From Callorhinchus milii (taxonomy: Eukaryota): a stretch of DNA of 64,000 nucleotides. The position numbers and the translations under genes are program-made. The notes under the pieces were generated by a model, which saw only the letters and a program-made list of their open reading frames with translations, searched no databases and was not told the origin of the DNA. Every line of letters starts with the position of its first letter. The stretch's first letter is position 1. This document shows, piece after piece, positions 2,427 to 62,354 of this stretch. Location of the stretch: assembly GCF_018977255.1 (NCBI RefSeq), contig NW_024704743.1, forward strand, positions 41,478,001 to 41,542,000, read 5' to 3'.

Positions 2427-4164
2427 ATTATTATAATTTATTATAATTCAATACGACTAATTGAATTGAGAAGGGAGTTTCTCCTGATGTCCCGGCCAAC
2501 AATCCACAAAATAAAATTGGTCACTTATTCCATGGCTGTTTTTGGACAATATGGTATGTAAAACTATCTGCTGTGTTTGCCTATAGCAGTCATATTAGAG
2601 TCAGCAAAGTCCAAAAGAAATGCAGGAAGCAAAACTTGTTAGACTCTAATTAGCTCCATCAACCCAACCTATTTATTTCTGCGTTCTGATGCTTGAACTA
2701 TCCCCTTTGCTCACATTATTACATTATCACATCCCCTTTGCTGTATTATTATTATATTATTAATCCATCCTCCCAATTTGTCTCACCTCTTATACTTCTC
2801 CCAAATTGCCCAAACTGTAAATGAACTAATCAATACTCTTTTTATAGTATCGGTATATCTTCCCAAAGGAATTCATACTCAACAATGTGGGAAAATGCAA
2901 TAGTGCTAAACATATTCTGGTCTTTAATTATCACAGATGTTCAGGAAAGGAATGTGTTAGCAATACTGCATTTCCTCCTCCTCTCCACCCCCATAGTATT
3001 TCTAAATATAAGAAAACATAGTAACAGAGTACAGCTGAAATGAGGGCAGGTTTCTTATGTTTTTTGCTTTCAGTTGCTTCAGGGGGAAAAAAAATACTCT
3101 GAAAAATATTAGTGCAACATTGACAAAAATCCTTCATACTGTATTTGCGACATTTACCAAAATGAATGTGACCGATTCCCTGCTGCCTAATTCAGACTGC
3201 AGAAATGCTCATTCATTAAACGGTGACTTTCAGACTTGTGCATCAAAGACCTGAAATGTCACAAGTGATCTTAAAGTGAAGGCCTTTGCTTTGAAGTTTA
3301 AGATTGTGTGGAACTTTGGAAACAGTTCTAAATTTAGTCTTAATGTTAAGGTTGATTTACTACAATACAAAAGAAACAATAGCAGAAAATTGGCTCCCAA
3401 TTTAAGGCTGAATTTAAGGACTGTTTTTCAAAATTCCGCTGAATCTTTGACATTACGATAATGGTGTTCTTCTGTGCTGTAGGATTTTATGATTCTATTC
3501 CATGGTCTGAAGTCAAAGATCATGAAAAACTTCATGCCCTAGGGTTTGATTCAGGAAGGAGAAGCTTTGTTACTTGCAGGCATCTTAGATTACTATATAC
3601 TATTGCTGTATAGTTGCAGCACTACTCATTTTCTTGGCATAAATATCATCATCATAATAATGCTTACATTTGGTATAACGCTGTTAATGTCAGGAGGACA
3701 TCTGAAAGTACTTCATAAGATATACTGTAAAGTGGAATGATTGTTTTGCACGCAAATACAATGGTTTAAATGCACCATCCTTACAGGATTGATATTCTGG
3801 TTAATTTGTTCTAATCAGGTTCTATAAATGATGAACTTTGGAGTCATTCTGCCACTGCTTGTCTTCAATACCACTCTGTACCTTGAGTGATAATGTCATC
3901 GGACAGCTGATAAAGAAAGAAGAATGAGTGGGACACAGCACATTTCCCTAAATTGCATAAACTTTGTGATAAAAAGAGAAATTTCCAATTTATCTTCAAA
4001 TAAATCTGAGGAACTCATATACCCAGTTCAAGAACTCACCAGATTACATCATGTACTTTTCAATCAGGCTGTTAACATTATGCTCAGTGAAGGCTCTGTC
4101 CTGACTTAATCTCAGAAAACCAAGAAAGTCATTGCACTTCTTGGCTGTGAGATTGACACAAGTT

Positions 4165-10897: not shown

Positions 10898-13800
10898 ACA
10901 TTCAACAATTTGCCTGCCCAACCATCCATCCATTATTTGTATTATGTTGTATTATTTATTTGTATTATGCTGCGGTCAGAGTCAATAATAGCTTACTCAT
11001 AAATGGAATCCCTTTTGGTTATACAAGTCCCAAGCATTAGCTCTATTGACTTCACAGGGGTGTTCTACAATGCTGACATTTTAGCACATTGGTTAAATTT
11101 ACAACTTGCTAAAGTATTGAATAGCAATTAACTAGACATGCTGGAAGGAGTCTCTCCAGATACTGATCTCAACACAGATCTCCTAGAAGCTGGGTTACAC
11201 ATTCGCTTTACATCTTACGACTTCTCAGATTCCAGCAGAACCATGCAATGTTTATGTAACACTTTAGAATGTTACATATTTAATCCAGTTGTTAGATCCC
11301 GGCATTTCACAGTAGAAGCAGCATTCACTCTCTCTAATGGTTTCCTTCTCTTCCTCCAACATTCCTGTGTTAAACATTCATATAAGGAAGTATCCCACTG
11401 AACGTTCGTACCAATCCAGGCAAATCTGTTCCAAATCAATGTCTTGTTTCCAGTAGCTACCGAATGCCGATGCCTGAGGCACAGTCATCAATGAAGAAAT
11501 ACTTAGTCAATAAAATGTATTTGGTTGGCTGACCAAAAGGGTTGGCCACCACTGGCATAGGGCATGATCAACAGTTTTGACAAGGCAAATGGCCCATTTC
11601 TGTTCCCATTTTCCTACCATTGCTTCAGACCTGCAATTTCTGAGCTTTCTGAATGGAAGATTTCAAAGTATCAACACAGCAGTAATAGACACAAAAAAAA
11701 TAGAAAACTTCCTTGCCTAAAAGCATGGATATAAATAAGGGCTATTGAGAGAAGATTTACAATTATAATTTACATTTATAAATCAGCTTTCACCTCTCAA
11801 AGTGCTTCACACAGCTGACTGGGAGTCTAAACTTGGGAGCAGAGAGCTAAGTTTGCCTACAAATGCACAGTCACTACAATTTATCACTTATAGGAACAGA
11901 AAAATCATGAGGATAATGATGAAATGTTTACAGCATAGTTGGAGGCTACTTGACCCATTGTACTATTGTTGAGAACAAATATCACTATGGGGAAGCATTT
12001 GAGAATTCTGCAGGCTTTCAGTCATCTTTTTTATCCTGGAAGTTTAGGATGGGTGTATGAAATAGTTCAGATCAATAATAATAATCATTACATATCCTAT
12101 AGCTGTTTCACGACGGGAGGATGTTTCACAGTGTTTCACAGGATATATTTCAAATGCTCCAAGATGCTACCCCTGTGAAGTTGTTGTTAGTGTTGCAATA
12201 CTGTAAAGTATAGTGACCTTGTATTCTGATGGTGAACACAGTAACCAATTTTGTATTTGGTTTTGTATGATTGAATGTGGTAATTCTGATTAGGATTATA
12301 AATCTAGTTCTAATTTGGAAGATGTTCTCTTCTCCAAGATCATTATGAGAATCGATACTGAAGTTTCTTGAAGGTATATGTACGAAACAAGACCGAGTAG
12401 ATGGTCGTATGGAAATCATCTGGGTAAGGAATCAGAAGAGAGCAATGATGGGCAGTATTTGCATGGTCAGCCAGCAACCGCAGTAAACATAATGCAGAAA
12501 ATGGTTCAAGGCCAAATTTCTCCAGTGTAATATAACTTCAAGGAAAGCATAACATGATAACTCAGTCTTGAGTGCAATTCTTTTGTTCTTAGTAAGGATT
12601 AAAGTACAGAGTAGTGGGTATGGAACAAAATATAATTTATTGAAAATCTAAACCCAACGTGAAAAGAGTTATGTACTTCTGTTTAGACCAACATAAACAG
12701 CATGTTCAGAGTTGTGTTTGTTTATTCAGAATCATGTTTTTTTAAATACGAAATCCATTCGCTGCAGCAGTAATGTGGTAGCTTGTTTGATGTGCAGTTC
12801 AGTGTAAACATTGGTCAGAACCACGGAGGCTTGCTCGGGCTTCAGTGCCTCTTTCTACTTTCTCACTTTAGCATGCACTTTACGGCCACTTAAGCAGAAC
12901 GCATGATTTAAAGTGCTTGTTGCCTTCAGGTAGACGTTCTATTCACGTTTTCTTATTGGACAAGAAATGTGAAAACATATCACCCTTCTGTTATACAAAG
13001 GGCATCTTTCATCCCAGAGGCTCTCAGCATCTCTCAAAACATTAAAGAAATGATCTGTAACAAAGGATAGGTAATTGTACTCCAACCGGCTTGTAAAGTT
13101 TTTCCAGTGCACAAGTGTAGGAGCGCTAAAAAAACAATTGAGCCGCAATTAAATTACACTAAGTTCTCTTGAACAATGCAGCCTTAGGCCCTGAGGCACA
13201 TCTCTTCAAACCGTGAGAACTATGGGAAACACTCAGTTAATTTAGATGCAGTAGAAATAAAAGCTACTAAGGTGAAAGTGTTGAATTACTGGCAGCTGTT
13301 TTATAAATCCAAAAGTCCCAAAACAGAAAAGATTAAAGCATTAGGAAATGCCTATAAATTAACAATAAGCGGTGATATATGGACTGTATACACACTCAAT
13401 TTTCTTTTTAAAAGTATGTCGTAACTAGTTGCTAATATTATTAATTGTAACTATGTGAAAGAGCCTCCCTGTGATCCTTTACTGCAGCCACAAACACAAC
13501 ATGAACAATGATTTAGCATTGGATCGTTCAGCTGCATTGGTAAAACGTGTCATTTTCAATGCATACCTGTTATACCTATCAATTTGGTAAAAGTCTAGTG
13601 AACCATTGGAGGATATGTGATGAAGAGCGGGGCGGTGCAAATTACATTCCACATGAGGAGGAATAATCTGATAATTTGTTATGGACAGTGCCACAACCAT
13701 AGCCCAATCCCCATTTTAGGGCCTAAATCATGAAATGGTCTTGGATTTGGAAATGTTCTTCTGAACTGGGTCACCATTACATGGAGTTAAATTCTGAGCA

Positions 13801-14157
13801 GAACTTGAACTGAAGAAAATAAACATGTGTGTTTGAAATTTTCTGCCTTTGGAATTTGTGCTAATTGTGTGATTCAATAACAAATTCACGAAGAAATTTG
13901 TGAAAACATTGTAATCCGGAACATTGGTAAAGCAGCCAATGTTTAACCTTGTGTTAGATATTTCATTCCTATACTGGTTGAGAAACAACACAAAGCATAA
14001 TGTTAGGCCCAACTGCAACTTCCAGTTTGAAAAAGTCACTTGATAGAAAATATTGTATACTTTTGTTGGGAGACTGTTATAACATCATTCAGCTAGGTAG
14101 GAAATACTAATGGTTCTTCATGTGTGAGGCTTGGTCAGGAGTGTCAATAGATTATTA

Positions 14158-15016: not shown

Positions 15017-15379
15017 GAGAAACTGGAAGTTGCAGTTGGGCCTGATATTATGCTTTGAACGTGTCATTGACAGCTGTATCCAGTGCAAATAATGAGGACC
15101 TCTGTCTGTGCTTTTAGTAATGCTAGGCTATAATTCATGAAACATCCCATGAAATATGCAATGAATCCACTTTACAATATCACAAAAACACATCACATTT
15201 GTATGGCGCCTTTCACAGCAGAAGTATCCCCTGTGAAGTACTTGAGATGTCTTAACATAATAAGGCGCTATATCAAATGCAAGGATTCTTATTTTGTTAC
15301 AGTTGTCCTTGGCTGCACTCTGTTTTGATATACAAAATACATCCACCATCAATAAATGTATAGTTCTTAGAAGACTAGC

Positions 15380-16145
15380 ACATCTGATTCAGCCTGGTTC
15401 TCTAATCCATCTTCTGCTTAATTGCCCGGAAAACGCATTATATGAATGAATGAAAGTACTGAGGCTCCATCCATGCCTCAATAATCTTGACCATTATTTT
15501 ACTGTTCTGATGTGCCTTGCATTAAATGATTACTGAATCTGGTGCTAGGTTATACGGGTTTAAAAATTGGATGTTCGTCAGGTGGTGTTTATGGTGAATT
15601 CAAAATTGTAAGTGTTGAGTATTGTCAGACATTATATCATTCAAAATTCTTCACATTCGCTGGGACCTGCTATAAAATCACTTTTGTAGCTATTTATTTG
15701 CACTAACTAAAGATTGTAATTAACAGTTGTGTAAACAATCAATACCTATTCAAGTATCTCACTCTTAAATTAAAAAATAAGCTATTGAGAATAAAGTAAA
15801 TGTTGGAACATTGACTTCTAAATTCTGTGTTCGATACTTTTCAAGGGATAGTCAGGAACACAATTTCTAAAGCTTGATATCACATAAACAATTTAGGGAA
15901 GAAAGACACTCCACTGCATGTAGCAGTAACACTCAAATCTTTACTTAATGCATGGCAGACCAGAACTGTGAAACAATGGTCAAGATTACAGGGAATGCAT
16001 GGATTCTCAGTACTTTCATCCATTTACTCATTTTAGCACATGATGCGCTCTCTGGGTACTTAAGCATAAAGCTGGATTAAAGTGCATGTTTTGTGAAGCA
16101 GAATGCATTCATTCTCCCTGACTTTCCTATTGACCAAGAAAGGTC
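15380..16145. repeat. Degenerate inverted repeat (arms ~15400-15550 and ~15915-16080)
   Basis: atgaaagtactgaggctccatccatgcctcaataatcttgaccattattttactgttctg (15450-) matches the reverse complement of 15960-16019 (atgaaagtactgagaatccatgcattccctgtaatcttgaccattgtttcacagttctg). Confidence 0.8.
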
Positions 16146-16308
16146 CAGGCACATGATAATATTTTTTTCGTTCTCGCTCAGAAAGAACTTTTGTAGATGT
16201 CAATTGAGGTGAATATGACTTAGGTTTATAATAGCTATGATTTCAACAATACGTCAAAGACAGACTTCAGCTATTTTATGGAATGTTACATTTCTATCTG
16301 GAGAAGAC

Positions 16309-17295: not shown

Positions 17296-19074
17296 GCACA
17301 ATCAAAATTTTGGACACCAAGTGGAGACTACACGGTTTAAAGATGTTGAGCAAATGCACAATCAATGAGATATTTCTAGGTTTTTGAAAGCAGGATGAGA
17401 AGCAGAGTGTCCAACTTTGGGACATGAACTTACGCTCCAAGCAGATTCTCCATCACATTGCTGGGGAGTGCTCATTGCCGGAGGTGGTACCATTGGATAA
17501 GACTTGAAAACCAACGTTCCAGAAGGATCTGGTGTCCTGGATAACAACCCTAGCTGAAAAATGATCATTCATTTTGTGCCTGCTTTGTGGAGGGAGAAAA
17601 TCAGGGACAATGAACGCATTCTGCTTCACAAAACATTGGTGTGTGCAAATTGGTTTCTGGATTTGAAAATACAGTCACTAAACTTTACAGCAGATCCCAT
17701 GAAGTGCTTTGAGAATCCGTGATGTACTTTTGAGATTTCCTCCCAATGTGAAAGGTACTATATCAACTGTAAGGATAACTATTTATTTATTTAAGCCTAT
17801 TTATTTTGGTCTGTGTAGCTTAAATCACAAGAAAGGTGTGAATGAAGATGACCCTTTGACCTGTTCGATCTCATCCTTCAAAATGCACTGTTGATAGCAC
17901 TGCTGAAAGTGCCATTACATATCTTTTGTCTTGAATGTAATTCCGAACTGCCAGCTATGCTCTGTGTTTATAAACTCTAATCAAATTCATGGTTGGTGGT
18001 GAGATACCTAACTGATTTGGGGTGTGGGGAGGTATGAGTTGCTTTGATGTACTCTGCTGGATTCAGTATCATCTCTACACAAAGAATGAATGATGTCGTG
18101 GGAAGAGGCAAAGAACATTTACTGTGCAAAGCGTACACATTTTGCCTACTACTCTGTTATCTATAACATTTCACATCATTCTGAATCAGACATGAAAAAG
18201 ATGGATTTGTTTCTATATAATTTTATTAATATAAAAGAACTATCATTTAAAACAACCCAGACAAAGCTGTTTCATCCTACATCTTTCCCAGCTTAGATAC
18301 TGTAACATTTAACAATTAAATAAATGAAAGTAATTCACTAAAGGCCCAATTAATGTAATGGAATGTAATGGTGCTATTCATCTGATTGAAGGTCAGTATT
18401 GTGTCCTACTTATTGCAGTGAGACACCGAGGTTTACAATGAAGGCACGACACACAACATGATTATTGCAGTCACTGCCAAGAAACATTCAAAATATAATT
18501 AACAGCACACATAACCAAAGGTGGCAGAAGATAACACAACATGGAAAAAACATTCCTGTAACGCGTTCTCTCAAAACAATCATAGACTAATTGCATAATT
18601 AATAAAATCTTACATAGTGCACATCTGCTAAATATCTGCTGCCCACAAAGCACCAAATAAGTTTGTTTACAGTTATTATCCAAAGGAAAATGAAATAATT
18701 TTTCAACATTGCTTAGAAAGTGCCATCAATCTGTGTTCAAGAAAATGTTCAAGGGCATCATACAGGGTGGTATCTGGGAACATTCAAACTGTACAGATAC
18801 TATAAAGAATAAGGGGATTTAGGAGCAATATATCATTTGATAGTGGTGGAGAGGGTGGTAGAAACACCAAAGCATAGTTCATTGAAACAATATTTAGTCT
18901 GTTGGGAAGGAGATGCATGCCTTTGTCATCAAGTAGTGATCATAATAATTACTTGCATTTATGTAGCACCTTTCACATTAAGAATAAATGTCTTGAAGGC
19001 TTTGCAAAATATGTAGATTGCATAGAAAACAAGTGAAGGTTGTTACTTTGGCCAAAGCAACAGTTAATCTGCAT

Positions 19075-20930: not shown

Positions 20931-21872
20931 CAGTTTGATAATGAGGGTTTCATGAGGCACCAGGTTGAAACCTTCTAGAAACCAATGACGCAATGAACGT
21001 GAATTTCCCCTTAACTTTACGATGTTACGCAATCTCATACAAAACCAAAACTGCACATTCCTGCAATGTAGCTGTGAGCATTGTTGGCTACTGGTGGCAT
21101 ACATTGGAAGAGTAATCCAGTTCTCAGTGTCTGGGCTGAAGCCTTCTTTTACCCTGTTTCCAGGCTGAAATAAAAAAGTAACTTTAGGAGAGGTGCCACC
21201 TGTCCACCTGACCTAATGTACAGTACAGCCACAAGATTAACTGCAGTAATTAGACTAGCTTGGCTTTCATGTTTAGAGTTTGTTGCAAGAGGGAAATAGT
21301 TCAGGAAGATAGGTTCAGGCTCTATTCACTTGCACATTTTGTTCCCATGGCAACGTGCAACTTTTTAGTTCCATTCTTTTAAACTGCATTTTCTGATTAT
21401 CAATTTGCAGTAATCAATTATTAATGTAGTTATTAAGGTAGAATCACGAATACATCGCCCATAAAAGCTATCAGTTCACTCACATCTGCACTGTGTGTCA
21501 GCTCTTGCACATATATGTTGTAAACAAGAAATGTTGCAATGTATCTCCACCAAAGCAGCAGAAGAGTCCACAATTGAGAGTAAGATAGTGTGGAGTTTTA
21601 ATGAAGCAAATAATATTCAATTGTCTAACATTTACCAAACACCTTATATATACTGTATGACTGAACAAATGGTCTACAGCTTCACCATAATGATATACTA
21701 AACCAAAGTCTTGTTTGCCTTTTCAAGCGTTAAAAGAACCCAAGTCAGTTTTATAAAAAAGATTTTTCCAGGTCTCCTGGCCAGCAATCCCCCAATCACA
21801 ATTGGTTTGATTCATGATGTTTTTGGGACATTGCTGTGTGCCAGTTGGCTACCACATTCATCTATAAATGCA

Positions 21873-22460
21873 TTTTTTTTGATTAGCCGGGTGATTGACA
21901 CATGTAGAAACCCATCACAATGCTTAAGACTTTCCAAACCAGACTGAGTTCCATGCATCCCACCTACACACGGAAATTTCAGCGATGTTTATTGGAATGG
22001 AATGCACATTCTCTTCCTGGAGGGATGCATTCTACTTACATAATTCCAGAAAGTATAAGGCCCTGGTTTGCAAGAGCTAAGGCTTGGGGACTCCAGACTG
22101 TGTGTTGGGGTACTACTGGAGTATAACCAGCTAAAACCGCTTAGCTTGCCATTGAAGCTTCCTGTTGCTCGTCCAGCTAAGCCCATCCTACCCGTTATGG
22201 CTTTGGCTTGCAGGGTTAATGGGAGCTGAGTGGGATAACTCCCTGCCCCAAGTGGCTGGTCTGCCCTTCCAAGTCCTGCCAATGAACCAGACTGGCTGTA
22301 CTGTCATCAGCAGTACTCTGGAATACTGTTTCAAGGATCAGACTACTGAGACCTCCACAGAGGGTTAGCTTCATTCTGACATTCCATTGGCAAACATGTC
22401 ACCTTGGAGCCAGTTCAACTCTAAGGAGACCCCACTTACACCCCCGCTTCCCTCAAGGAG
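21873..22460 (-). mobile_element. Unclassified A-tailed interspersed repeat, copy 1 (inside a Deu-SINE remnant at ~21760-21870 / 22462-22570)
   Basis: Colinear with the reverse complement of 58830-59271; T8 at 21873-21880 marks the shared end. Confidence 0.7.
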
Positions 22461-23877: not shown

Positions 23878-24134
23878 NNNNNNNNNNNNNNNNNNNNNNN
23901 NNNNNNNNNNNNNNNNNNNNNNNNNNNNNNNNNNNNNNNNNNNNNNNNNNNNNNNNNNNNNNNNNNNNNNNNNNNNNNNNNNNNNNNNNNNNNNNNNNNN
24001 NNNNNNNNNNNNNNNNNNNNNNNNNNNNNNNNNNNNNNNNNNNNNNNNNNNNNNNNNNNNNNNNNNNNNNNNNNNNNNNNNNNNNNNNNNNNNNNNNNNN
24101 NNNNNNNNNNNNNNNNNNNNNNNNNNNNNNNNNN
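23878..24134. other. Assembly gap (257 N)
   Basis: Run of N. Confidence 1.
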
Positions 24135-25309: not shown

Positions 25310-27784
25310 AGGACTTGCTTGAGGATTATGGGGTGAATCCTTCAGCAAATAGGAATTGGAATCATCATGAAGTCAAATGTCCATGTTCTATTAGTATCTG
25401 CTGATCAGAGATGTTGGTCACTAACGGATGCCTGGTGTCCATTGTCAGAAGGATGTCAGACGGTGCGCCATGTGGAAGTAACTTGTGAAAAAATTAGAAA
25501 AATGCCTTGACAATAATGGATATAGAGCACTCAGTTTATGTTTGCCATTTAAACATGGAGCAAGACTGATGGAGGTCAAGCAGAGAGCAATCACTATTTG
25601 AATTTATTAAATTCTCTAAATGTAAACAACAACGACATCATATAGCACCATGAATCAGAATAGCACCATAAACAGCTCTACAGTGGCAGAATTGGACCCC
25701 GAGCAAGGGAGAAGGAGTTTAGGGAGGTGGCTGGAGGTGAGGCCAACGAGTTAATCTTCAAGTGGGATTTAAACGATCCCAAAACAATGTTAGAGGCAAG
25801 TAAAGAGGGATGCAAAACTGGTAGTTCTAAGGCTGCTGGCAGGCATTCCAATGGGAAGTTTGCATGGAAAGTGTTGTGTGCTAAAGAACCTTAACAATCT
25901 CTCCCTCCCTGCTACTATTTGTGGCTTTTTAATTCAAAATATCAAGTAAGGAAGTGAAAGTCAACCCACCCCCCCACCACACACACACATATGTTGGGAG
26001 TTATCTGTGTTCTGATGAAATGACTAGCGCATACATCTCTCAGGAGACAATCTCTCACTGTTCTCAATCACTGTGTTCTTTGAATATGAAATATGTGTTC
26101 TGCAGCCTTAATGCAGATTGCATTTTCCATTAGTTCATGAATTATATTACTTTAAATCAATCCTTCGTGTAATATAAATTGCATGAACTGGTGATAAAAG
26201 GTGACAGGCATATAATGTTGAGCAATTAGAATTTGTAACATCACAGAGCGCAGCTGTGATCTCACTATCCATTTAGTAATGGGTCTTTCCCTCGAAAGAC
26301 CTCTTTGTCCTATTAAAAAACAGACATTTTGACGGACTGAGAGCTGAAGATGAAGTCAGAGTATCCATAGTAACCATTTGTCAGATTCCTTTTATGATAT
26401 AATGATCTAGGCCAAACATTTCACAAAAATCTACATTCATTTGAGTCAAATATAACTCTTTTGAGTGCTTTAGGCTGTATTTATTATAAATAAGTTTGCA
26501 CTTGTAGTTTCTCTTGCCAGTATTCTAAAGGATTTTAAAACTTCTTTATTGGATTTATTGGGAGCCTATCAGAAATTGTAAACCAGGGTTTGCTGAACAT
26601 CAGAAGCTTATACTATTTATTTGGTACATCTGGGAAAGTAATTGACAGCAGAGACTTTAATGTCAGATTATACATCTTCATTTTAACCATTTTTTTTGTA
26701 ACCAGCATATTATTCCACCCAGCTTTGCACAATCCAATTGGGTTTGAGTGTCTCTCTTGTTAAGGTATGACGTTTAAGGTTATTTTACTTCAGGCTTAAC
26801 CCTGATAGATTCTATTCCTTTATGCACAGGGATATGTTTCTCATTTCTCATTGGTTATAGCCCCAACATGATGATTGGTAATGCTACAATATGAATGAGG
26901 GTGGAGTGCATCAATTTGGGCTTCCCTCTCTTTTTCTTGGACAGTCTCTGCTCCCTAAAGTACATTTTAAGAAAACAAGTTTTAATGCTTTTGGCAAGCC
27001 ATTTGCTTGACCGACTGAAAACTTAAAAAACATAAGATCAATAGATCCTCATATGCATCTCAAGTAAAGCACAATTCTTCCCAGCCTTGGCTAATACATT
27101 CGGCAATGCATTGCTTTTATTGTTTTACTGATGGGAGCAATAGCACTTTGCATCTGGCAGTATAAACTGGACATTATTTCCAACAGACAGAAAAATCCCA
27201 ACAGCAAAACCACTTGGATCTTTTGAAAATAGTTCATCTCTTGATTAGGTCCACTATGAAGTGGCTTGTTTACTCTATTGACATCTGAATTGTTCTCCAC
27301 TTTATATCATTAGTACCAGGCTCCTGACCGCAATCCACTGTCTCAGAGGAAAGCATTGAAGAAAAGCCAAATGTTTTCTGTACAGGGATAGAGGCTAAAA
27401 TAGTGCAAGTGTAATGTTCTGGCCTCTCTCATATATTGCCTAGTGGTTAGTTGGACACTGCCATTAGCAGAGGCCTGACAATAAGTTACCTCCCTTCTTG
27501 TCTAAGTGTGGGAATAAATAGGAAGACAAATGTGGGTGAGGAAATATAACAAAAGGTTATTATGTACATGGATACCTTTTTTAAGGATTATTTTACCCTT
27601 TGCCTACAACACTGATGGGTGAGGAGTGAAATACGTTGCTTTTCATGATATTTATCCACACAATCGAGGGACAATCTCAGGTTCATTCCAATTATGTGCT
27701 GAATTACCTGATCTCAGACAGAGCAGCATTTGTAATGTTACTGCAGTCAGATTTTTTCCACTCTTGTTTGATCCTATGTGATAC

Positions 27785-30889: not shown

Positions 30890-31081
30890 TTTCTTCATGT
30901 GGAGTGTAATCAATACCTGGAACAGGTTGCCAGGAAAGATGTCAGAGGTCAGGAGAGTGGATTCATTTAAAAAGCAGCTTGATGCTGTAATGAGAGGATT
31001 GTAGGGCGTATGTTCTGAAAGGATGAGATCGGGTGGGCCAAAGAGCCTTCTTCATCTGAACCAATCTTGTGATCTTGTGAA
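30890..31081 (+). mobile_element. CR1 3' fragment (tcttgtga-tail family)
   Basis: VINTWNRLP...SFKKQLD translation; tail tcttgtgatcttgtga; related to 43800-44115 and 63468-63740. Confidence 0.8.
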
Positions 31082-32080
31082 ACTGGTGATCAACAATAGA
31101 ATTTGACCACAGATCCATGGACTTGCCTCTCTAATCTCAGCCTTTTTTTATATAACTGATAACCTTTTAACATAACTTGAAAAGAGTCAATTCCCACAAT
31201 ATTTACTACTTTTGGTTACAGTTTATGTCAACAATTATCCCCAATTGTTTGCTAGACTTTTTCAACACACATAGATTTTGCCATACAATCACAGCTCATA
31301 ACAGTATAGTGAATGTATGGCGGTCATTAAAACATATGTGCAGTTACTTTTTTTTTTGCTTTGAATTAAATCTAAATAAGTTTGTACCTGATGATTAGAG
31401 TATCCAATAAATCATTTATTGACAATGGACCTGTGTAAATTAAACACAGTGCCATTTTTTGTACGTTCATGAAACATGTGCACTACAAGTCACATTTGCT
31501 TATATAATCTCCTGCTTATAAACCCTCCATATTACTTCTACTCAATAAGAATTAATTTTAATTTACTATAAAGAACGATTGCCATTTACTATGATACAAT
31601 ACAATATCTGGTGCATTTTGAAATTTGAAAGCAATGTATTGAAAGACATTTATAAACTCCATTCAATAATTATTCAAACCCAGAAAAGGGAAGGTGAACG
31701 GACAGTTTAGATTAGATGGCTTTACACAGAGAGTGGTGAGTGATATGTGAAGATAGACAACTAAGAGAGGCAGTGAATGCACATTATTTGAACAACTTTC
31801 AAGAAGAACTTAGATAAGGCCCCGTGATAGCACACTTCACTGGAAAGCAAGCAAACTTAACTGTTTTCTTATGGATCCAAAGTTACCAGATGTGATTTAC
31901 CATTCCGGTTTCTATAGACCTGCAGGAGTGGACCGACCTGCTTACTGCACATGTGTGCTACATATACTAATACTAATTCTTACATTTGATAAATGTTTTC
32001 CATACAAAGAACAAGTTGCTTCAGATCAAGGGTGAAAAATGCATTAAATGATACGATCATGTATTTCTCACCTCAATGTT

Positions 32081-34136
32081 AATTTGACTTGATATTGACT
32101 AGTTGACTATTCCAGCTGCCATTCTGACATGCAATAATCCACAATTGTCATGGATGCTTACATAACATTCCCAGCCTAATTTATTGACATTGATGTAGAA
32201 ATGACCACTTTGACAATGTGCTGTTATTAACTGATGTGAAACTCAAAGTGCTGTACTAAAGATGCAATATTTATACTTCAGCTGTGATCCGAACTTCATT
32301 TTCTGTCACTTAATTAATGAAAGCTGGCACATCTCTGCTGACTGAGCATTAGCTGGATGTGTGTTCACACTTAAGATTAATTAAATAATTGCTTTCCATG
32401 AAATAGGTCTAACTCACAAATAGTACTTTAAATATGGAAGGCATTTGTGAAGTAAAGCAGTAACTCTTTGGAGAATTAAATTACTTATTGGCTACTGACA
32501 TATTCTTCCAACATGGTTTCTTTTAAACTGATTTTACTAAGTACCATCTATCCAAAGTATTATTTCGTGACATTGCTAGAGAGGGAGGAAGATGAATATT
32601 TGATTAATAAAATGCCCCTGTTACAATGGTAATAATTTCAACTTCAAAGCGTTAATGAAACATTTTGCGAGCTATAAATCTCTCTGGACCACTTAGGCCC
32701 TTCATCTAATTATAGTTGCCTTTTAACAAAAGCTCAAAAGCTTTCCAGTTTATCGTGAAGGATACAGAGGATCAATTTTTCCAATTAATACATCACACTG
32801 GGTATATTATTTGCAAAGTTTTTTGACAAGAGCTAATTTCATGTTCAGAGTGATGCACTTTGCTGATATTGATCACTATTTTGGTATTCTGACAAAGTTT
32901 CATTTCTGGTTGCACTCCTATATCCCCAGATCTTCAAACATTTCAGATAACACACATGGGAATTTTAGAAGTTGTGTGAAATTTTGGAACTCATTGTGCT
33001 TTCACTTTCTCTTTCACTTTCCATCCTATCAAAACCTATCCATATTTCAAAAACCTGTATTAGATAGTTTCTGACACATTCTCTTTTCCAATAGAAACAG
33101 AAGCAATTGTTATCATCCCTCTGAACCTACCATGTACCCTTTACTTTACTCTGATGTCTTCTCGATAATGGGACACCCAGAAATGTGCCTTGTTCTCCAA
33201 AGTAAGCCTCACCAGCAGTTCTTAACATGGAACTGACACAACTACAGGATAAATCTGGCAGCAACAGGAAGAAGGGTGTCCAGTTGTCAGTATTTCTACT
33301 TTTGTGTTGATCTTCCTGTCACCAGAGGTACAAGCTGAAAACAGCATAAAGGTGAGATGTTACATAACAAATTAATCCTCAATATCCTCACGATAAACTG
33401 GAAAGCTTTTGAGGTAACCATAATTTGATGGAGTGCTAAGTGGTCCAGGGAGATTTACAGCTCACAAAAGGTTTCATTAATGCTTTGAAGTTGAAATTAT
33501 TACCATTATAACATGGGGATTTTTTAAATCAAATATTCATTTCCCTGCCTCTCCAGCAATTTCACGAATAACGCTTTGGATAGATGGTACTTAGTAAAAT
33601 CAGTTCAAATGAAGCTATGTTGGGAGAAAGTGAATCAAAAACCAGTAAGTAATATCATCCTCTAAAGAGTTACTGCTTCATTTCACAAATGATTTCCCTG
33701 CTTAATGTACTATTCCTGTGTCAGATCTCTTTCATGGAAAGCAATTATTTCATTAATCTTAAGTGTGAACACACATCCAGTTAATGCTCAGTCAGCAGAG
33801 ATGTGGTGGCTTTCATCAGGGCTATTATTTTTAATTAAGTGACAGAAAATGCATTTCGATCACAGCCGAAATTTAAACATCATATCTTTAGTACTGCATT
33901 ACACTTTTGAATCAATTAAATTCTGCGCAACTTCTAAATGGTCCCTTCTTCATCAATGAAATGGCTGTCAATAAATTCAACTGAGAATGTAATGTAACCA
34001 TCCATGAAATTGTGGAATCTTGTGATACAAGTATGGCAGTATTGTGGCTGGAACAGTCAATGAGACTTTACTTCGTTAATTGGGACTAATCCAAATGCAC
34101 ATCAGTTACTTTAGTAGACAGAAATATCAAGTCAAT
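32081..34136. repeat. Large inverted repeat: arms ~32081-32778 and ~33369-34136, spacer ~590 bp
   Basis: 32328-32403 vs 33730-33805 reverse-complement match 74/76; 32526-32557 vs 33574-33605 match 32/32; colinear similarity along the arms. Confidence 0.95.
33015..33220 (-). mobile_element. Degenerate CR1 fragment in the palindrome spacer
   Basis: gggacacccagaaatgtgccttgttctccaaagtaagcctcaccag resembles the reverse complement of the CR1 ORF2 LVRPHLEY..QFW region. Confidence 0.5.
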
Positions 34137-35689
34137 TTGGACATAACACAAAAAATATTATTTTAAATAAGGAATCAAGCAGCTCTGATAACTCTTCCTG
34201 ATACTTGTTTTCATGTCCCAATCTTTCAGAATCATTAACAATCCTTAAATGGCAATACTAAATTCATTCATGTCTTTCCACACTAATGTTTTACTGGCGC
34301 TGGATACTGCTTTTATACTGATTACAACCAAAGTGCTAATTTATCTTTCCAGATAGGAGGTACCAAGTGAAGTGTATGATAGTCCTCCAGATTACTGTGT
34401 GAGTTGCAGCAAATAGAGAATTCAGAAGAACACAGAGTTAGAAGATAGATGTCATGCATTCAAAATGTACAAACATTTTAACACTTCCTCATCCTTTGAG
34501 AATGTAACTAAGCTAATGAATATCCCATGTCTACAATATCCTCTGATTTTCAAAGGCATTTGATAGTTGTAGAAGTGAGACTTTTAAGGAAGTTTTAGAG
34601 TATACAATTATTGTCAAATTATCCTATATGACTCATGTTTGTCTTAGCCATAGAAACGGAAAGTAGTGATGAATGGAAAAACTTTCATATGGAATTATTT
34701 ATGCAGGCACAAATAGTACAATAAAAAAAAACTTGCACGCTCTGGTGCAAAATTTGCATGTTCTTGTGCAAAACATCACTTTTTGGGCAAAACATTTTTC
34801 TTTCTGAGCTTTTGTTGGAATTTTTGTTTCACCCCAAAAATGTCTCAAAAGCGTGTTAAAAATAATCTTGTTATTTATTATTATTTACAGAAAAATTGGT
34901 GAGTGTGCGGAATGGGCTACTCAGAAAGGCAGTGGAAGCAGATCGTGTCAGCAAATTCATGAGAGAATTAAGCATCTGTTTGACAAATAAGACAATTGAG
35001 CCATATGAGATATATTGTGTAGGATTTTTTGTTTTACGTTGAAACCAGCCAGAAAGCGTACATTGTTATTTTCCAGTATCTACATTCCTATCTTCTGAAG
35101 CCATCACTTAATACGTATGTTAAATTGCAACTCCTTATATGCCTTTATTTTGAGGGTACCTATCCTGTTCAATTTACCTGTAGAATAGTGTATTATTTTA
35201 TGACTATGGCATTCCAATTGCCAGCTCGCATACTTGCCCTTTGAGGCTTCCTATTCTTGCCTGATGTCAGCTCCCGAGTCCAGTAGTTCACTATTAATAC
35301 TTCTTATATTAGGGATTATTTTTAGGGATTATTATCCTCAGAAAAGTGATCCACTCCTTTTTTCATTTAATTTAATTCTTTCTCTTGGTAGCAATAACCA
35401 GTTTTTCATCCATGTTTACCGATTGCTTATTTCCTTCCCCCTTGACAAATCATAGTTGAATGAATTACATTGTTATTTCACTTTCCTGACTCTCTAGCTA
35501 GTTATGTATACAATATTCTTCCTGTAGAATTGTTATTTCTTCTCAGAAGTTTTCCAATTGTCTTCAAATTCAGTATCTGGTACAAACCAATTTAATAATC
35601 ATTTAATCATATCAATTATCTTGCTCAACCTCTCTATACCGCCAGGGTTACTCTTTTTACTTTATATGTACCTACCATATCTTTAATTT

Positions 35690-38330: not shown

Positions 38331-38902
38331 TATGATGTCTGAGATATTGCCTTATATGGATATATGTAAAGAGCCTAATAGATTAGAACAATGCAATACA
38401 AATCTACATTATATAGCACCTTTCATGTTGAGAGGACATTCCTAAATGGCTTAATAGTTTTATATCCTTTTTATTATCAATTGCAACCCTACAATTCAAG
38501 GTGACTCATAACTATAATAATTGAACACTACATGACATATTACTGTCGTCCAGGATATACATTTAGCAGCTCTTTGTTTTATGGCAAGGAGACGACCAAG
38601 ACTTTTTTTTAAACCAGGGCGCTGTCATTGAGTGGATTCTATCGTAAAAGTTCTTCTCTTTCACCTCTGTCGCATATGGCTAACAAGGAAATCAATGTAA
38701 AGTACTGTTGTGTGTTTGACCTTCAGGTGAAAGTGTGACTGATCATTAGGAAATGGTAATAATGTTAATTGCTTTTAATTAAGCTATTATTCATGTGTGT
38801 TCCTTTCAGAATATTAAGTCTACTTAGATGAGGTGAGAGAGATACATCTTCTTGGATCTTTGTTACTATCAGTTGAATGCACCTTCAGCTCCAAATATCA
38901 TT

Positions 38903-56560: not shown

Positions 56561-58199
56561 TTACCATCTGAGTTCCCTCTTATCGGGTTTTCTTGTATTC
56601 AACTGTATACCTATTTCAATCCACAAGTAAGTTCTTCTTCCATTCACGTGTTGCTATATTGACCTTTGAGTGTACTTTCCGGAGCACAGAGAAAAATCTT
56701 TTGAGAAGGAGCAGGTTAAGGAAATCAAACAGTTTTAAGTAGGTATTTTGAGACAATCTGTTGCCAATGTGAAAACTATAAGTACTTTGATTTTGAAATG
56801 CTGGATACAGCTGCAACAGTGTTAGATTGATTTATATTGTTCTTAACATGATTGAACTTAGCACTATGAGAAATAGCTGTCATTTGAATCAACATAAGGG
56901 ACCCAGTAGAGATCTAGACTGACAGGTAATAGAGATGCATGCGGTCTCGATAAGGTTTGATTCTGAAACTCAATTCTAAATCAACCCGAGATACATTCTT
57001 GGAAACACGATTGGAGCCGCTCTTAACATTTAGGTTGAACATCTGCATTCATAATGCACTTATGGAGCTAGCAGTGACAAATGGCACATCTCTGCACAAA
57101 TTTGACTTTGTCTATCCAGCCTCTAAAATATAGTGATATTACACTACTGGGATTGACATTCCAATTTATACCTACATGCTGAAAAATAAAAGAGAAAATT
57201 ACAAGTGAGGGAATACATAAAATCGTAGCATGGTGAATCACACCAGGGTAATAATTTTACCAGAACGCATTGCACTTAGGGATGAGTACCCATCAAAATC
57301 TGAATCTCAAAGCATCTGGACATACACATCTGTTGTATACAGAGAAAAAATGGCCACTCTCAATTCTCTTCCAGTGCCTACTTTGATGTAATAAGACTAC
57401 AACATTACTAGTGCATTATTTCTCCTTTCTTGGTAAATTAAATAGCTGTTTGTGAGCTTCTTGTGACACCACAAATTTATTTCGTTTTTTTAGGACTGCA
57501 CATAAATTTAACAAAAAAATGAAAGAGCTATCGAGTGCCAGAAAAGTGTGAGGTTGGTTGTGTGCATCAAACCAAGCACTAGATCTCAGAGTAAAATATG
57601 TCACTCATCTTTCTGTTACACTGCAGTGCAGTTCCTTGAATAGAATTTAATTCACATTCTCAAACTCTAATTCATCTATTTTTGTGCTGCTCAGTGGGAA
57701 AATATGCCGATGGCATGAAAATAGGACAGTGTTATCTTATTTTGATTTGAGCGTTATTGTGACAATTATACAAACAATTGTTTTTAGGTGGTAGAGTGGA
57801 TTAGTCTGTAAACATCTTATTACAGAATAGTAAAATTCAGGCTTGACCATTGTTCACAAATGTTATATATAAAAATTGTGTTTTGTGATGTTTATACTAT
57901 ACTAGCACAATCTGTTTCTTGGTGCCATTGCCAGCAGTACATTTGTACTTTGAATGTGAGGGCACATTATGCTTCACAGTTACTACTGATCAAATAAATT
58001 TAATTGTCAATCAGATTCAAATCAGATGAATGATCAAAACTATGATTCATGACCCATAGATAAATTCCTGTGTCAAGGTGCACAGAGCAGAAAGGAAAGA
58101 ATGTTTCCATAAGTGAACTAATTAATGTCCACCACAACTCTTTGACTACACCTAGTCAGCTGCTTATGCCTACAATTTTCATTCACATTGGGCTTGCAT

Positions 58200-58829: not shown

Positions 58830-59271
58830 TCTGACAAAGGTGAAGTACTCCAGGGCACTGCTGATAACAGACTAACCAACTCTTGAGCAGGACTTGGAGG
58901 GGCAGACCAATCACTGGTTGCAGGGATTCTTCCCACTCGGCTCCTGTTAACCATAAAAAATAAAGCCTAATAGGTAGGGTGGTCCGAACTGGACATGCAA
59001 CAGGAAGCTTACAAGATAGTGCTCTCAATGATGAAGTCCAGCAATATCCAATGCTGAATCTGAGATCCCCAAACATTGTCTCTCGGAAACCTTCAACTAA
59101 TATTCTCTGAAATGAGTTAAGCAGGGTGTGTCCCTTCAGGGAGACAGTGTGGATTCCATTCCAAACACAGGGAAAGGTCTCTGTGTGGGCGGTATACACT
59201 CTTTCTAGTTTGAATACTCTTAAGTTTGTGATGGGTTTCCACGTGTCAGAAACTTACCTGACCAAAAAAAA
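58830..59271 (+). mobile_element. Unclassified A-tailed interspersed repeat, copy 2
   Basis: Reverse-complement similarity to 21873-22340; A8 at 59264-59271. Confidence 0.7.
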
Positions 59272-59274
59272 TGA

Positions 59275-59640: not shown

Positions 59641-60520
59641 ACGAACTGGGCCAGGTTGACACCAATCACCAATATTGTCAAATATGAGGTGATTTCTAAC
59701 AGGTTTCCAAGTAAGGATTCCTTCCAGTAACCAGAAGTCATGCATATCATATTGACCTCCAGCAGAATGGAGCTCCATTCTGAAAATAAATTGTGTCAGA
59801 GTGCAAGTTTTGCTTATGGGCATGAATATTTCCTGGTGAAGGATACCATTAGAAATCATTGCATATTGGATTCCATTAACGTGCACTTTAATGTAAAAGC
59901 CATTAACCACACACATTGTAAAAGTGCATTGAACTTTCTAGCATAAAGAATATAGCCCAGTTTATGTCCTTGTCTTATATTTTAGGTGAAATCACTTAAG
60001 ACTTCCAGTGTTTCTTTCATTATCACTTTTTAACAAATGTTTTGTGAAGTCTTCATTATTCTTGACAGAGGCGTATCCACTGCAGAAATTTCTAAATGGT
60101 ATTGTCAATAATACCCCAGCAACAGTAAAGGAATGACTAAATGACTACAAGTTAAAGTTGAATGAATAATTGGGCAAAATTTGCTGTGTTCCTCTTAAAG
60201 CATTCCTTGTTTAGCCAAGGAACATACTAAGGAATATCTCAATTGTCCCAATATTTATTATAATTCTGTTAATGTTGTCAACAATGACAAACAAGCTTAA
60301 CAATGGGATCTACTGGGTGCTGATCATTAAAATAGTGATATTTTCCTGAATTGTTTAATGGGGAATCAATAAGTCAATGAAGTGAAAAACATTGTACCAT
60401 ATTATCTGTGTTAGACACTAATAATGGAAACAAAACATTTTCAAAGGGTCTTGATTGAAAATAGAGGATGATAATATAATGTTTCACAATAGATTCAATG
60501 TTAATTCAATGTTAGCTACA

Positions 60521-61340: not shown

Positions 61341-62354
61341 TCATTTCTTCTGAATTCAGGTCTCTTTGTAACTTGCTCATTTGTCAGGGGGAGGGCTGCA
61401 TACAATAGTCAGGAAAACGTTTTCTTGTTTGGTGAGAGAGAAAAAACAAAAGATTTACTGATTATTGTCTGACAGAATTCCCTCAGGCTTTTAAGCTTCT
61501 ATCCAACATTCCATCATTCCACATCATCGTTTGGGTGCTCGCTTGCTTTTATCTATATGTCGTTTTTTTCTTCATTCACTTGCCTGTACAATAGATTTTT
61601 GCTTTGCTAGAGCTTTTACTTTACATTACATTCAGCTCTTTCCTTTTTTCCTTAATTCTCATAGTACTGCTAACTCTGAGGCTAAGCTCTGTTATAGGCA
61701 TGTATTTCCCTTGTTATTTCTAAGTCATTTTTCCTGTTTTTTTTATACTTTCCATGCTACTGCTTTATGTCTTTGAGTACATACTATGGCTATGGCTCCT
61801 GATCTGAATGCAAGAATTTGTTCTTAGTTCATTTTAATTATGACTTTTAACTAGGATTGCTCTGCTATTAATGCCTTTGGACTGATTCTTTCACTCTTTG
61901 CTCTGTGCTAATGACTGTTCACTGGGTTTAAATGTTTAATCTCAGGTGCACAGTCATCCAGAATCTCCCTCTTCCTCTCTTCAATTTGCATCTACCATTT
62001 ATCCTCAGTTTATACCATTTGGAGCAGGAGTATTGTTATAGCGCCAATTTTCTGTTACCGCTTTGTTCACCAACAGGCTGCTTCATTTCTCCATTTATGC
62101 TGTTCTCTGATCTGAGAGTGAGTTCCAGTCTCTCAACCATTTTATATACCACCTGCATCCTTTTGATTGCCAGAAATCACAATCCCCCATTATAAATTCA
62201 ACATAAACAAGAGTGAGCACTGAGCTCTCCTCCTGTGTAGTACAGTACTATTGTCTGACACTTTACAATAAAATAAATCCTTGCATTTGATATAGCGCCT
62301 TATCACCTCATCGAGACGTCTCAAAGCACTAGTGACCACCCGTATATTGTTGAG

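Follow-up and report, generated by a model that had tools for sequence, protein, structure and literature searches.

Two long inverted arms flanking a short noncoding center make up the layout of a MITE, and pairs of inverted Alu-type repeats in introns influence how transcripts are spliced or edited. At staggered breaks, unique DNA of 46 bp to 1.9 kb is described as duplicated in inverted orientation (Ranz 2007, PMC1885836), and inverted duplications are also described at LINE insertion sites (10.1101/2024.12.14.628481). The correction of quasi-palindromes via template switching is documented over short distances (PMC7954356), and vertebrate CNEs are characterized as AT-rich and TAATTA enriched (PMC5728398). 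The locus described here is a real, old, single-locus inverted duplication of noncoding DNA, and the evidence that blocks shared by its arms have evolved slowly is moderate. Our tentative first choice, to which we give somewhat less than an even chance, is that CNE-like DNA was long ago duplicated locally in inverted orientation and that both copies have since been partly kept as enhancers.

Geometry, copy number, and setting of the inverted repeat

The window, i.e., the whole stretch of 64 kb analyzed, is vertebrate noncoding DNA of 38.5% GC containing tRNA-headed SINEs (six Rfam tRNA matches) and L2 and CR1 pieces, a repeat content that would suit a cartilaginous fish. None of the 334 non-repeat ORFs of at least 45 amino acids reached the Pfam cutoff, with one match falling below it; among the window ORFs, only L2 reverse transcriptases scored in Pfam, and shorter exons would escape an ORF search. 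With no Pfam-level gene among these 334 ORFs, the window is either a gene desert or lies within a very long intron. The strand skews disagree (TA, +0.020; GC, −0.024), and the transposable elements are balanced in orientation (SINE, 19/12; L2, 10/10). The window also contains an assembly gap of 257 N at 23878-24134, a 21-bp tandem doublet at 34728-34774, 670 bp beyond the right arm (TRF score of 66), a two-copy old repeat dissimilar to the common SINEs (21871-22327 and 58844-59273; 68% over 457 columns), and three stretches that look CNE-like by eye (26100-26400, 38540-38800, and 1577-1880).

Self-blastn returned one inverted HSP, pairing 32132-32778 with 34022-33369 (78.9% over 673 columns; E = 1.7e-162), and our own alignment of 32103-32798 with 34060-33352 comprised 565 matches, 109 mismatches, and 57 gap columns in 13 gaps, corresponding to 83.8% identity (565 of 674 aligned columns) and a JC distance of 0.18. 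Both confirm the colinear reverse-complement arms of the original prediction, the parts of which are as follows.

32103 to 32798, forward strand: left arm, noncoding and TAAT-rich (by alignment; nhmmer reach to ~32093-32096)
33352 to 34060, reverse strand: right arm, the reverse complement of the left arm (by alignment; nhmmer reach to ~34067-34070)
32799 to 33351, no strand: spacer (loop) of 553 bp, the halves of which are not inverted copies of each other

Three exactly quoted matches (74/76, 32/32, and a 26-mer at 32625 and 33482) also proved accurate to the base. Relative to the predicted limits of ~32081-32778 and ~33369-34136, the inner ends are shifted inward by about 20 bp, and the outer 20 to 70 bp are unsupported, since the outermost 16-mer (32081-32096 and 34123-34138) has a score of 28, within the range of shuffles (mean, 22.7; maximum, 40). 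The spacer, put at ~590 bp, is accordingly shorter, at the 553 bp given above; the score of one half against the other is 25.5 (shuffles: mean, 21.0; maximum, 32.3), and a small inverted repeat within the spacer was dismissed (p = 0.07). A continuation of the arms into the flanks was likewise rejected, as 31000-32100 and 34062-35200 match at shuffle level; the sole far flank match (47.2 against five shuffles with a maximum of 40.1) falls in L2-like pieces. The only tandem array within the arms is a 16-bp doublet at 32727. The mean identity of the arms does not stand out, since 42% of the 78 repeat pairs from the window are less alike, and from an identity of 84% we infer that the inverted repeat is not an assembly fold-back artifact.

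The locus is an adjacent reverse-complement copy of non-repetitive DNA and is single copy within the 64 kb. Single-arm nhmmer searches of the window recovered the partner arm only, plus one match at E = 0.95, and a two-arm profile produced no matches at E ≤ 5 beyond the locus, which agrees with the original observation that the arms match none of the SINE and LINE families of the window. Six-frame translation shows stops in all frames of the arms, and among 12 read-through frames there was one sub-cutoff Pfam match (E = 0.12) and no transposase; a coding origin was rejected for both arms, nothing in the translations exceeding the Pfam cutoff. The arms have no Rfam match, and two snoR127 matches (E = 0.25 and 1.7), far under the gathering score, were attributed to chance.

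Relative age of the spacer and possible origins of the arms

The old CR1 piece that had been predicted in the spacer is present on the minus strand at ~33236-33010.

33010 to 33236, reverse strand: decayed relic of the 3′ part of a CR1 ORF2, its class being among the oldest of the CR1 copies in the window (tblastn E = 1e-5)

A CR1 protein profile matches 33236-33105 (iE = 2.6e-5) and reaches weakly as far as 33010. Against a comparison set of 32 CR1 tail proteins, from 32 of 104 matches, its best amino acid identity is 43 to 45%, versus 62 to 74% for young copies in the window. This corresponds to roughly 0.2 substitutions per site, by a rough conversion from few residues, versus 0.09 per arm. 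By this measure, the CR1 in the spacer appears to be older than the divergence of the two arms. One possibility is that the spacer was there before the duplication, which would exclude a plain transposon that received an insert afterward; the other is that the arms match the CR1 in age and have evolved at about half speed. The worst-matching block of the arms (50/72) is close to the expectation for two neutral lineages of CR1-like decay. If the shark mutation rate of 7e-10 per generation (PMC10587355) applies, each arm represents ~1e8 generations, so that orthologues are expected in relatives. CR1 dating by nucleotide identity was abandoned in favor of protein identity because all relic pairs fell at 64 to 81% under lenient scoring. 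A low transition ratio as a sign of saturation (arms, 49/54, versus 354/281; p = 0.14) and CR1 homology reaching the right arm (p = 0.66 and 0.26) were not significant.

These ages bear on the unlikely alternative that the locus is the relic of a large palindromic or long-TIR nonautonomous DNA transposon (fold-back, Eulor/UCON/X_DNA-like) that received the CR1 in its center later and was possibly exapted. The locus does have the layout of a MITE, with long inverted arms and a short noncoding center, and a low-copy family could well appear once per 64 kb; ancient repeats have been turned into CNEs (PMC5728398), and some Eulor/UCON families are nonautonomous DNA transposons (PMC5753468). However, the two-arm profile finds no second element in the window, and apart from the doublet at 32727 the arms lack a tandem array. 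Neither a target site duplication nor best-kept outer termini were found, although age can erase both: the best TSD, 7 bp among 4896 end pairs, is not above chance, and the outer parts of the arms are less alike than the inner parts (78.7% versus 86.2%; p = 0.018, with a boundary picked after looking), the reverse of what a TIR predicts. There is no terminal signature, and no transposase in the 12 frames. A neutral MITE would have to predate anything inserted into it, and the spacer CR1 is more decayed than each arm, so that only an exapted or CR1-capturing version of this origin survives.

Further inverted copies lie in the same window. By blastn, there are four local single-copy inverted pairs including the main locus, and the one direct pair consists of two CR1 copies; four weaker palindromes and a single direct pair of non-repeat DNA emerged in addition from a masked nhmmer scan. 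One inverted pair (13991-14028 and 15020-15057; single copy, 36/38) has a right copy that abuts a truncated CR1 5′ end, like a templated junction insert. Non-repeat pieces in mixed orientation form a local family within 5 kb (12744-12970, 15400-15531, 15902-16166, and 17585-17636), of which 17585-17636 lies inserted, in inverted orientation, within an old SINE. The four palindromes of the nhmmer scan (3180-3561, 57434-57678, 59678-59870, and 61389-61482) are weak and decayed, and their spacer is short or absent; each exceeds 200 shuffles but was chosen after the scan, and they may be old MITE relics. Kinship of the main arms with three of the smaller inverted pairs was rejected, none of eight comparisons exceeding shuffles.

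The copy inside the old SINE and the copy abutting the CR1 5′ end show that neighboring DNA does get copied in reverse here, and these other local inverted duplicates, which the original prediction had missed, make a mutational origin the default. One old repair or replication event could have copied ~700 bp of AT- and TAAT-rich regulatory-type DNA in inverted orientation beside itself, by fold-back synthesis, a template switch, or a staggered break, in which case the hairpin geometry would be a by-product of the origin and not a function. The clustering of smaller inverted copies suggests that slow-evolving genomes retain a long record of local fold-back events.

Patchy identity and composition of the arms

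Identity between the arms varies along their length, from the outer to the inner end, as 59/72, 50/72, 57/67, 82/87, 93/122, 67/74, 88/99, and 69/81 (block boundaries set by eye). The following blocks stand out or were quoted.

32328 to 32403, forward strand: best block, identical to 33730-33805 at 74/76 positions (p corrected for the scan: 0.009 in permutations and 0.02 in simulations)
33730 to 33805, reverse strand: partner of the best block
32526 to 32557, forward strand: exact run, 32/32 with 33574-33605, of a length expected by chance
32625 to 32650, forward strand: exact 26-mer with 33482-33507
32733 to 32758, forward strand: exact 26-mer with 33388-33413, close to the inner ends
32176 to 32247, forward strand: worst block, 50/72 identical (lowest 72-mer, p = 0.006 by simulation)

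The best block includes a putative Maf/ARE-like site (32336-32348), retained in both arms. In permutations, the block variance (p = 0.0006) and the best 76-mer (p = 0.009) were significant, and the 50-bp block variance of the inner core alone was not (p = 0.26); among nine control repeat pairs, block variance reached significance in none (lowest p = 0.12). Uniform decay, the original prediction's own test, was simulated with CpG effects and indels and realigned likewise, and 1115 of 1500 runs were kept for matching identity. It is moderately rejected: phase-averaged block variance gave p = 0.0009, the lowest 72-mer p = 0.006, and the best 76-mer p = 0.02, and there are seven exact runs of at least 20 bp versus 2.6 under uniform decay (p = 0.007). 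The claim of very uneven identity is overstated: the overall patchiness does exceed uniform decay (p = 0.001 to 0.02), but the 32-bp run is unremarkable (p = 0.29 by permutation and 0.25 by simulation), as is the variance of the core. The gain from a two-state HMM was small: its LR of 8.0 was reached in 1 of 33 permutations and surpassed by 1 of 12 control pairs (14.3).

Patchiness by a joint criterion was compared across hand-set models, those with both arms slow having been tuned to the data, so that agreement means compatibility and not proof. It was reproduced in 0 of 463 runs of uniform decay, in 0.8% of 394 runs with one arm frozen, in 11% of 439 runs given a pair of old conversion tracts, and in 33 to 49% of 265 to 267 runs in which shared blocks were slow in both arms. 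Such patchiness fits slow change of the two arms at common blocks, or else conversion tracts of old date. The latter are the basis of another alternative, which we regard as possible but not probable: the same local inverted duplication would be functionless, decaying neutrally while occasional ancient arm-to-arm conversion or template-switch correction reset a few tracts. Besides the runs with two tracts, this alternative is in keeping with the short-range correction of quasi-palindromes (PMC7954356), with the other local inverted copies in the window, which show no sign of function, and with the motif sites in the arms, which are unprotected from mismatches. It accounts less well for the seven exact runs of at least 20 bp, which are scattered along the arm and would be rare from two tracts (p = 0.046), for the absence of any long perfect tract (longest, 32 bp; p = 0.25), which indicates that no recent conversion took place, and for the TAAT excess described below, which neutral decay with conversion leaves unexplained. 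Selection and gene conversion cannot be separated here as causes of the patchiness; conversion can mimic slow evolution.

The arms are noncoding and AT-rich (34 to 35% GC, versus 36.7%), and TAAT/ATTA occurs 23 times per 700 bp in the left arm and 20 times in the right arm, versus 11.2 ± 3.4 (maximum, 18) in 58 non-repeat windows. The excess persists after GC adjustment (z = 3.6 and 2.5), and these counts were reached in 0 and 1, respectively, of 200 dinucleotide shuffles. The tests extended to ten motifs and CpG, and the two arms do not count as independent. The TAAT excess supports the predicted inverted duplicated enhancer, but mismatches do not spare the motif sites (27 versus 29.0 expected and 18 versus 22.1), including TAAT alone (12 versus 11.4 and 7 versus 9.1). 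Eleven TAAT/ATTA sites are common to both arms, with 12 and 9 arm specific, as neutral decay predicts, and CpG, with 3 of 8 shared, is uninformative. Two 13-mers from the best blocks, searched on both strands in nine supplement files of PMC3261376, had no true match in the human-fugu, VISTA, lamprey, and zebrafish CNE sets, a weak test in which a line break or one substitution would hide a match; the sole occurrence had unrelated flanks.

Under the twin-enhancer reading that we favor, both copies would be partly under purifying selection as double-stranded DNA, with clusters of factor-binding sites drifting slowly in both arms and the linkers free to drift. If both arms prove conserved, the locus would be a natural experiment on a duplicated enhancer kept or subdivided within one chromatin neighborhood; if neither is, it would be an ordinary old rearrangement scar.

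RNA pairing and comparison with known systems

On either strand, the arms could form a very stable duplex, as could any such repeat, with predicted energies of −777 (minus) and −752 (plus) kcal/mol and longest unbroken helices of 36 and 54 bp. A function at the RNA level, in which the window is a giant intron and the minus-strand arms pair, looping out a 42-nt cassette exon (33254-33213) or feeding ADAR or Dicer, is nonetheless quite unlikely. The unit in question is as follows.

33213 to 33254, reverse strand: candidate exon-like 42-nt unit in the loop, with a branch-like site, pyrimidine tract, TGC, acceptor, and CR1-derived donor

By a rough splice matrix, this unit is the best in the window, with a score that none of 110 other windows and 1 of 300 shuffles attain. 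The acceptor is number 32 in a ranking of 8108, and among 253 good acceptors only 6 combine a branch-like site with a TGC close by. The unit has a single open frame, and its length is a multiple of 3. The matrix is crude, however, the test was post hoc, and the donor lies in CR1 sequence, and we treat the unit as a candidate lead. The search for it was prompted by a plus-strand donor noticed at 33352; there, 33326-33351 (plus strand) combines a moderate acceptor with a strong donor whose GT coincides precisely with the inner boundary of the right arm, and six plus-strand GT sites score as high. The mismatches give a long dsRNA, which the original prediction had listed as a candidate, nothing to build on: G-U-compatible mismatches number 25 on the plus and 30 on the minus strand (p = 0.59; core, 18 versus 17), in line with the lack of a clear G-U bias noticed earlier, and transversions make up half of the mismatches (54/109). 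An RNA-level function is further disfavored by the lack of a host exon among the 334 non-repeat ORFs, by the conflicting strand skews and unbiased element orientation, and by the arms, which have no Rfam match and no pre-miRNA-like hairpin (lowest z = −2.6 in 52 folds). A combination, in which a CR1-associated fold-back mirrored an ancient enhancer-like element and the arms serve both as twin DNA enhancers and as a 700-bp RNA stem controlling a CR1-derived 42-nt microexon, appears very improbable.

Like intronic inverted Alu-type pairs, the locus has long pairable arms and a loop possibly holding an exon; unlike them, its arms are not SINEs and show no G-U bias. The arms appear to be longer than the known Eulor/UCON/X_DNA families. 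These families are likewise old, noncoding, and often CNE-like, and some are nonautonomous DNA transposons (PMC5753468), but they are multicopy and consensus defined, and the locus has no TSD or terminal motif; the comparison is with the descriptions of these families in PMC5753468, PMC9004415, and PMC7786948. With the duplications at staggered breaks and LINE sites, the locus shares an inverted copy of unique DNA near its source, arms of 700 bp that fall inside the 46-bp to 1.9-kb range of the former (PMC1885836), and the retroelement at the center of the latter (10.1101/2024.12.14.628481). Those cases come from Drosophila and human cells, and the locus differs in that its CR1 homology is untraceable up to the arm (p = 0.66).

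The locus resembles vertebrate CNEs and duplicated CNEs in being noncoding, AT-rich, and TAAT/TAATTA enriched, in the block-wise similarity of its paralogous copies, and in its gene-poor setting. A few tandem cases among duplicated CNEs were reportedly noted by McEwen in 2006. Most CNEs are single copy, and non-unique ones derive mainly from whole-genome duplication (PMC5728398), whereas the copies here are adjacent, inverted, and 553 bp apart. In a literature search with thin coverage of subscription titles, no description of twin CNEs lying side by side in inverted orientation in fishes came up. We consider it highly improbable that some explanation outside those discussed applies.
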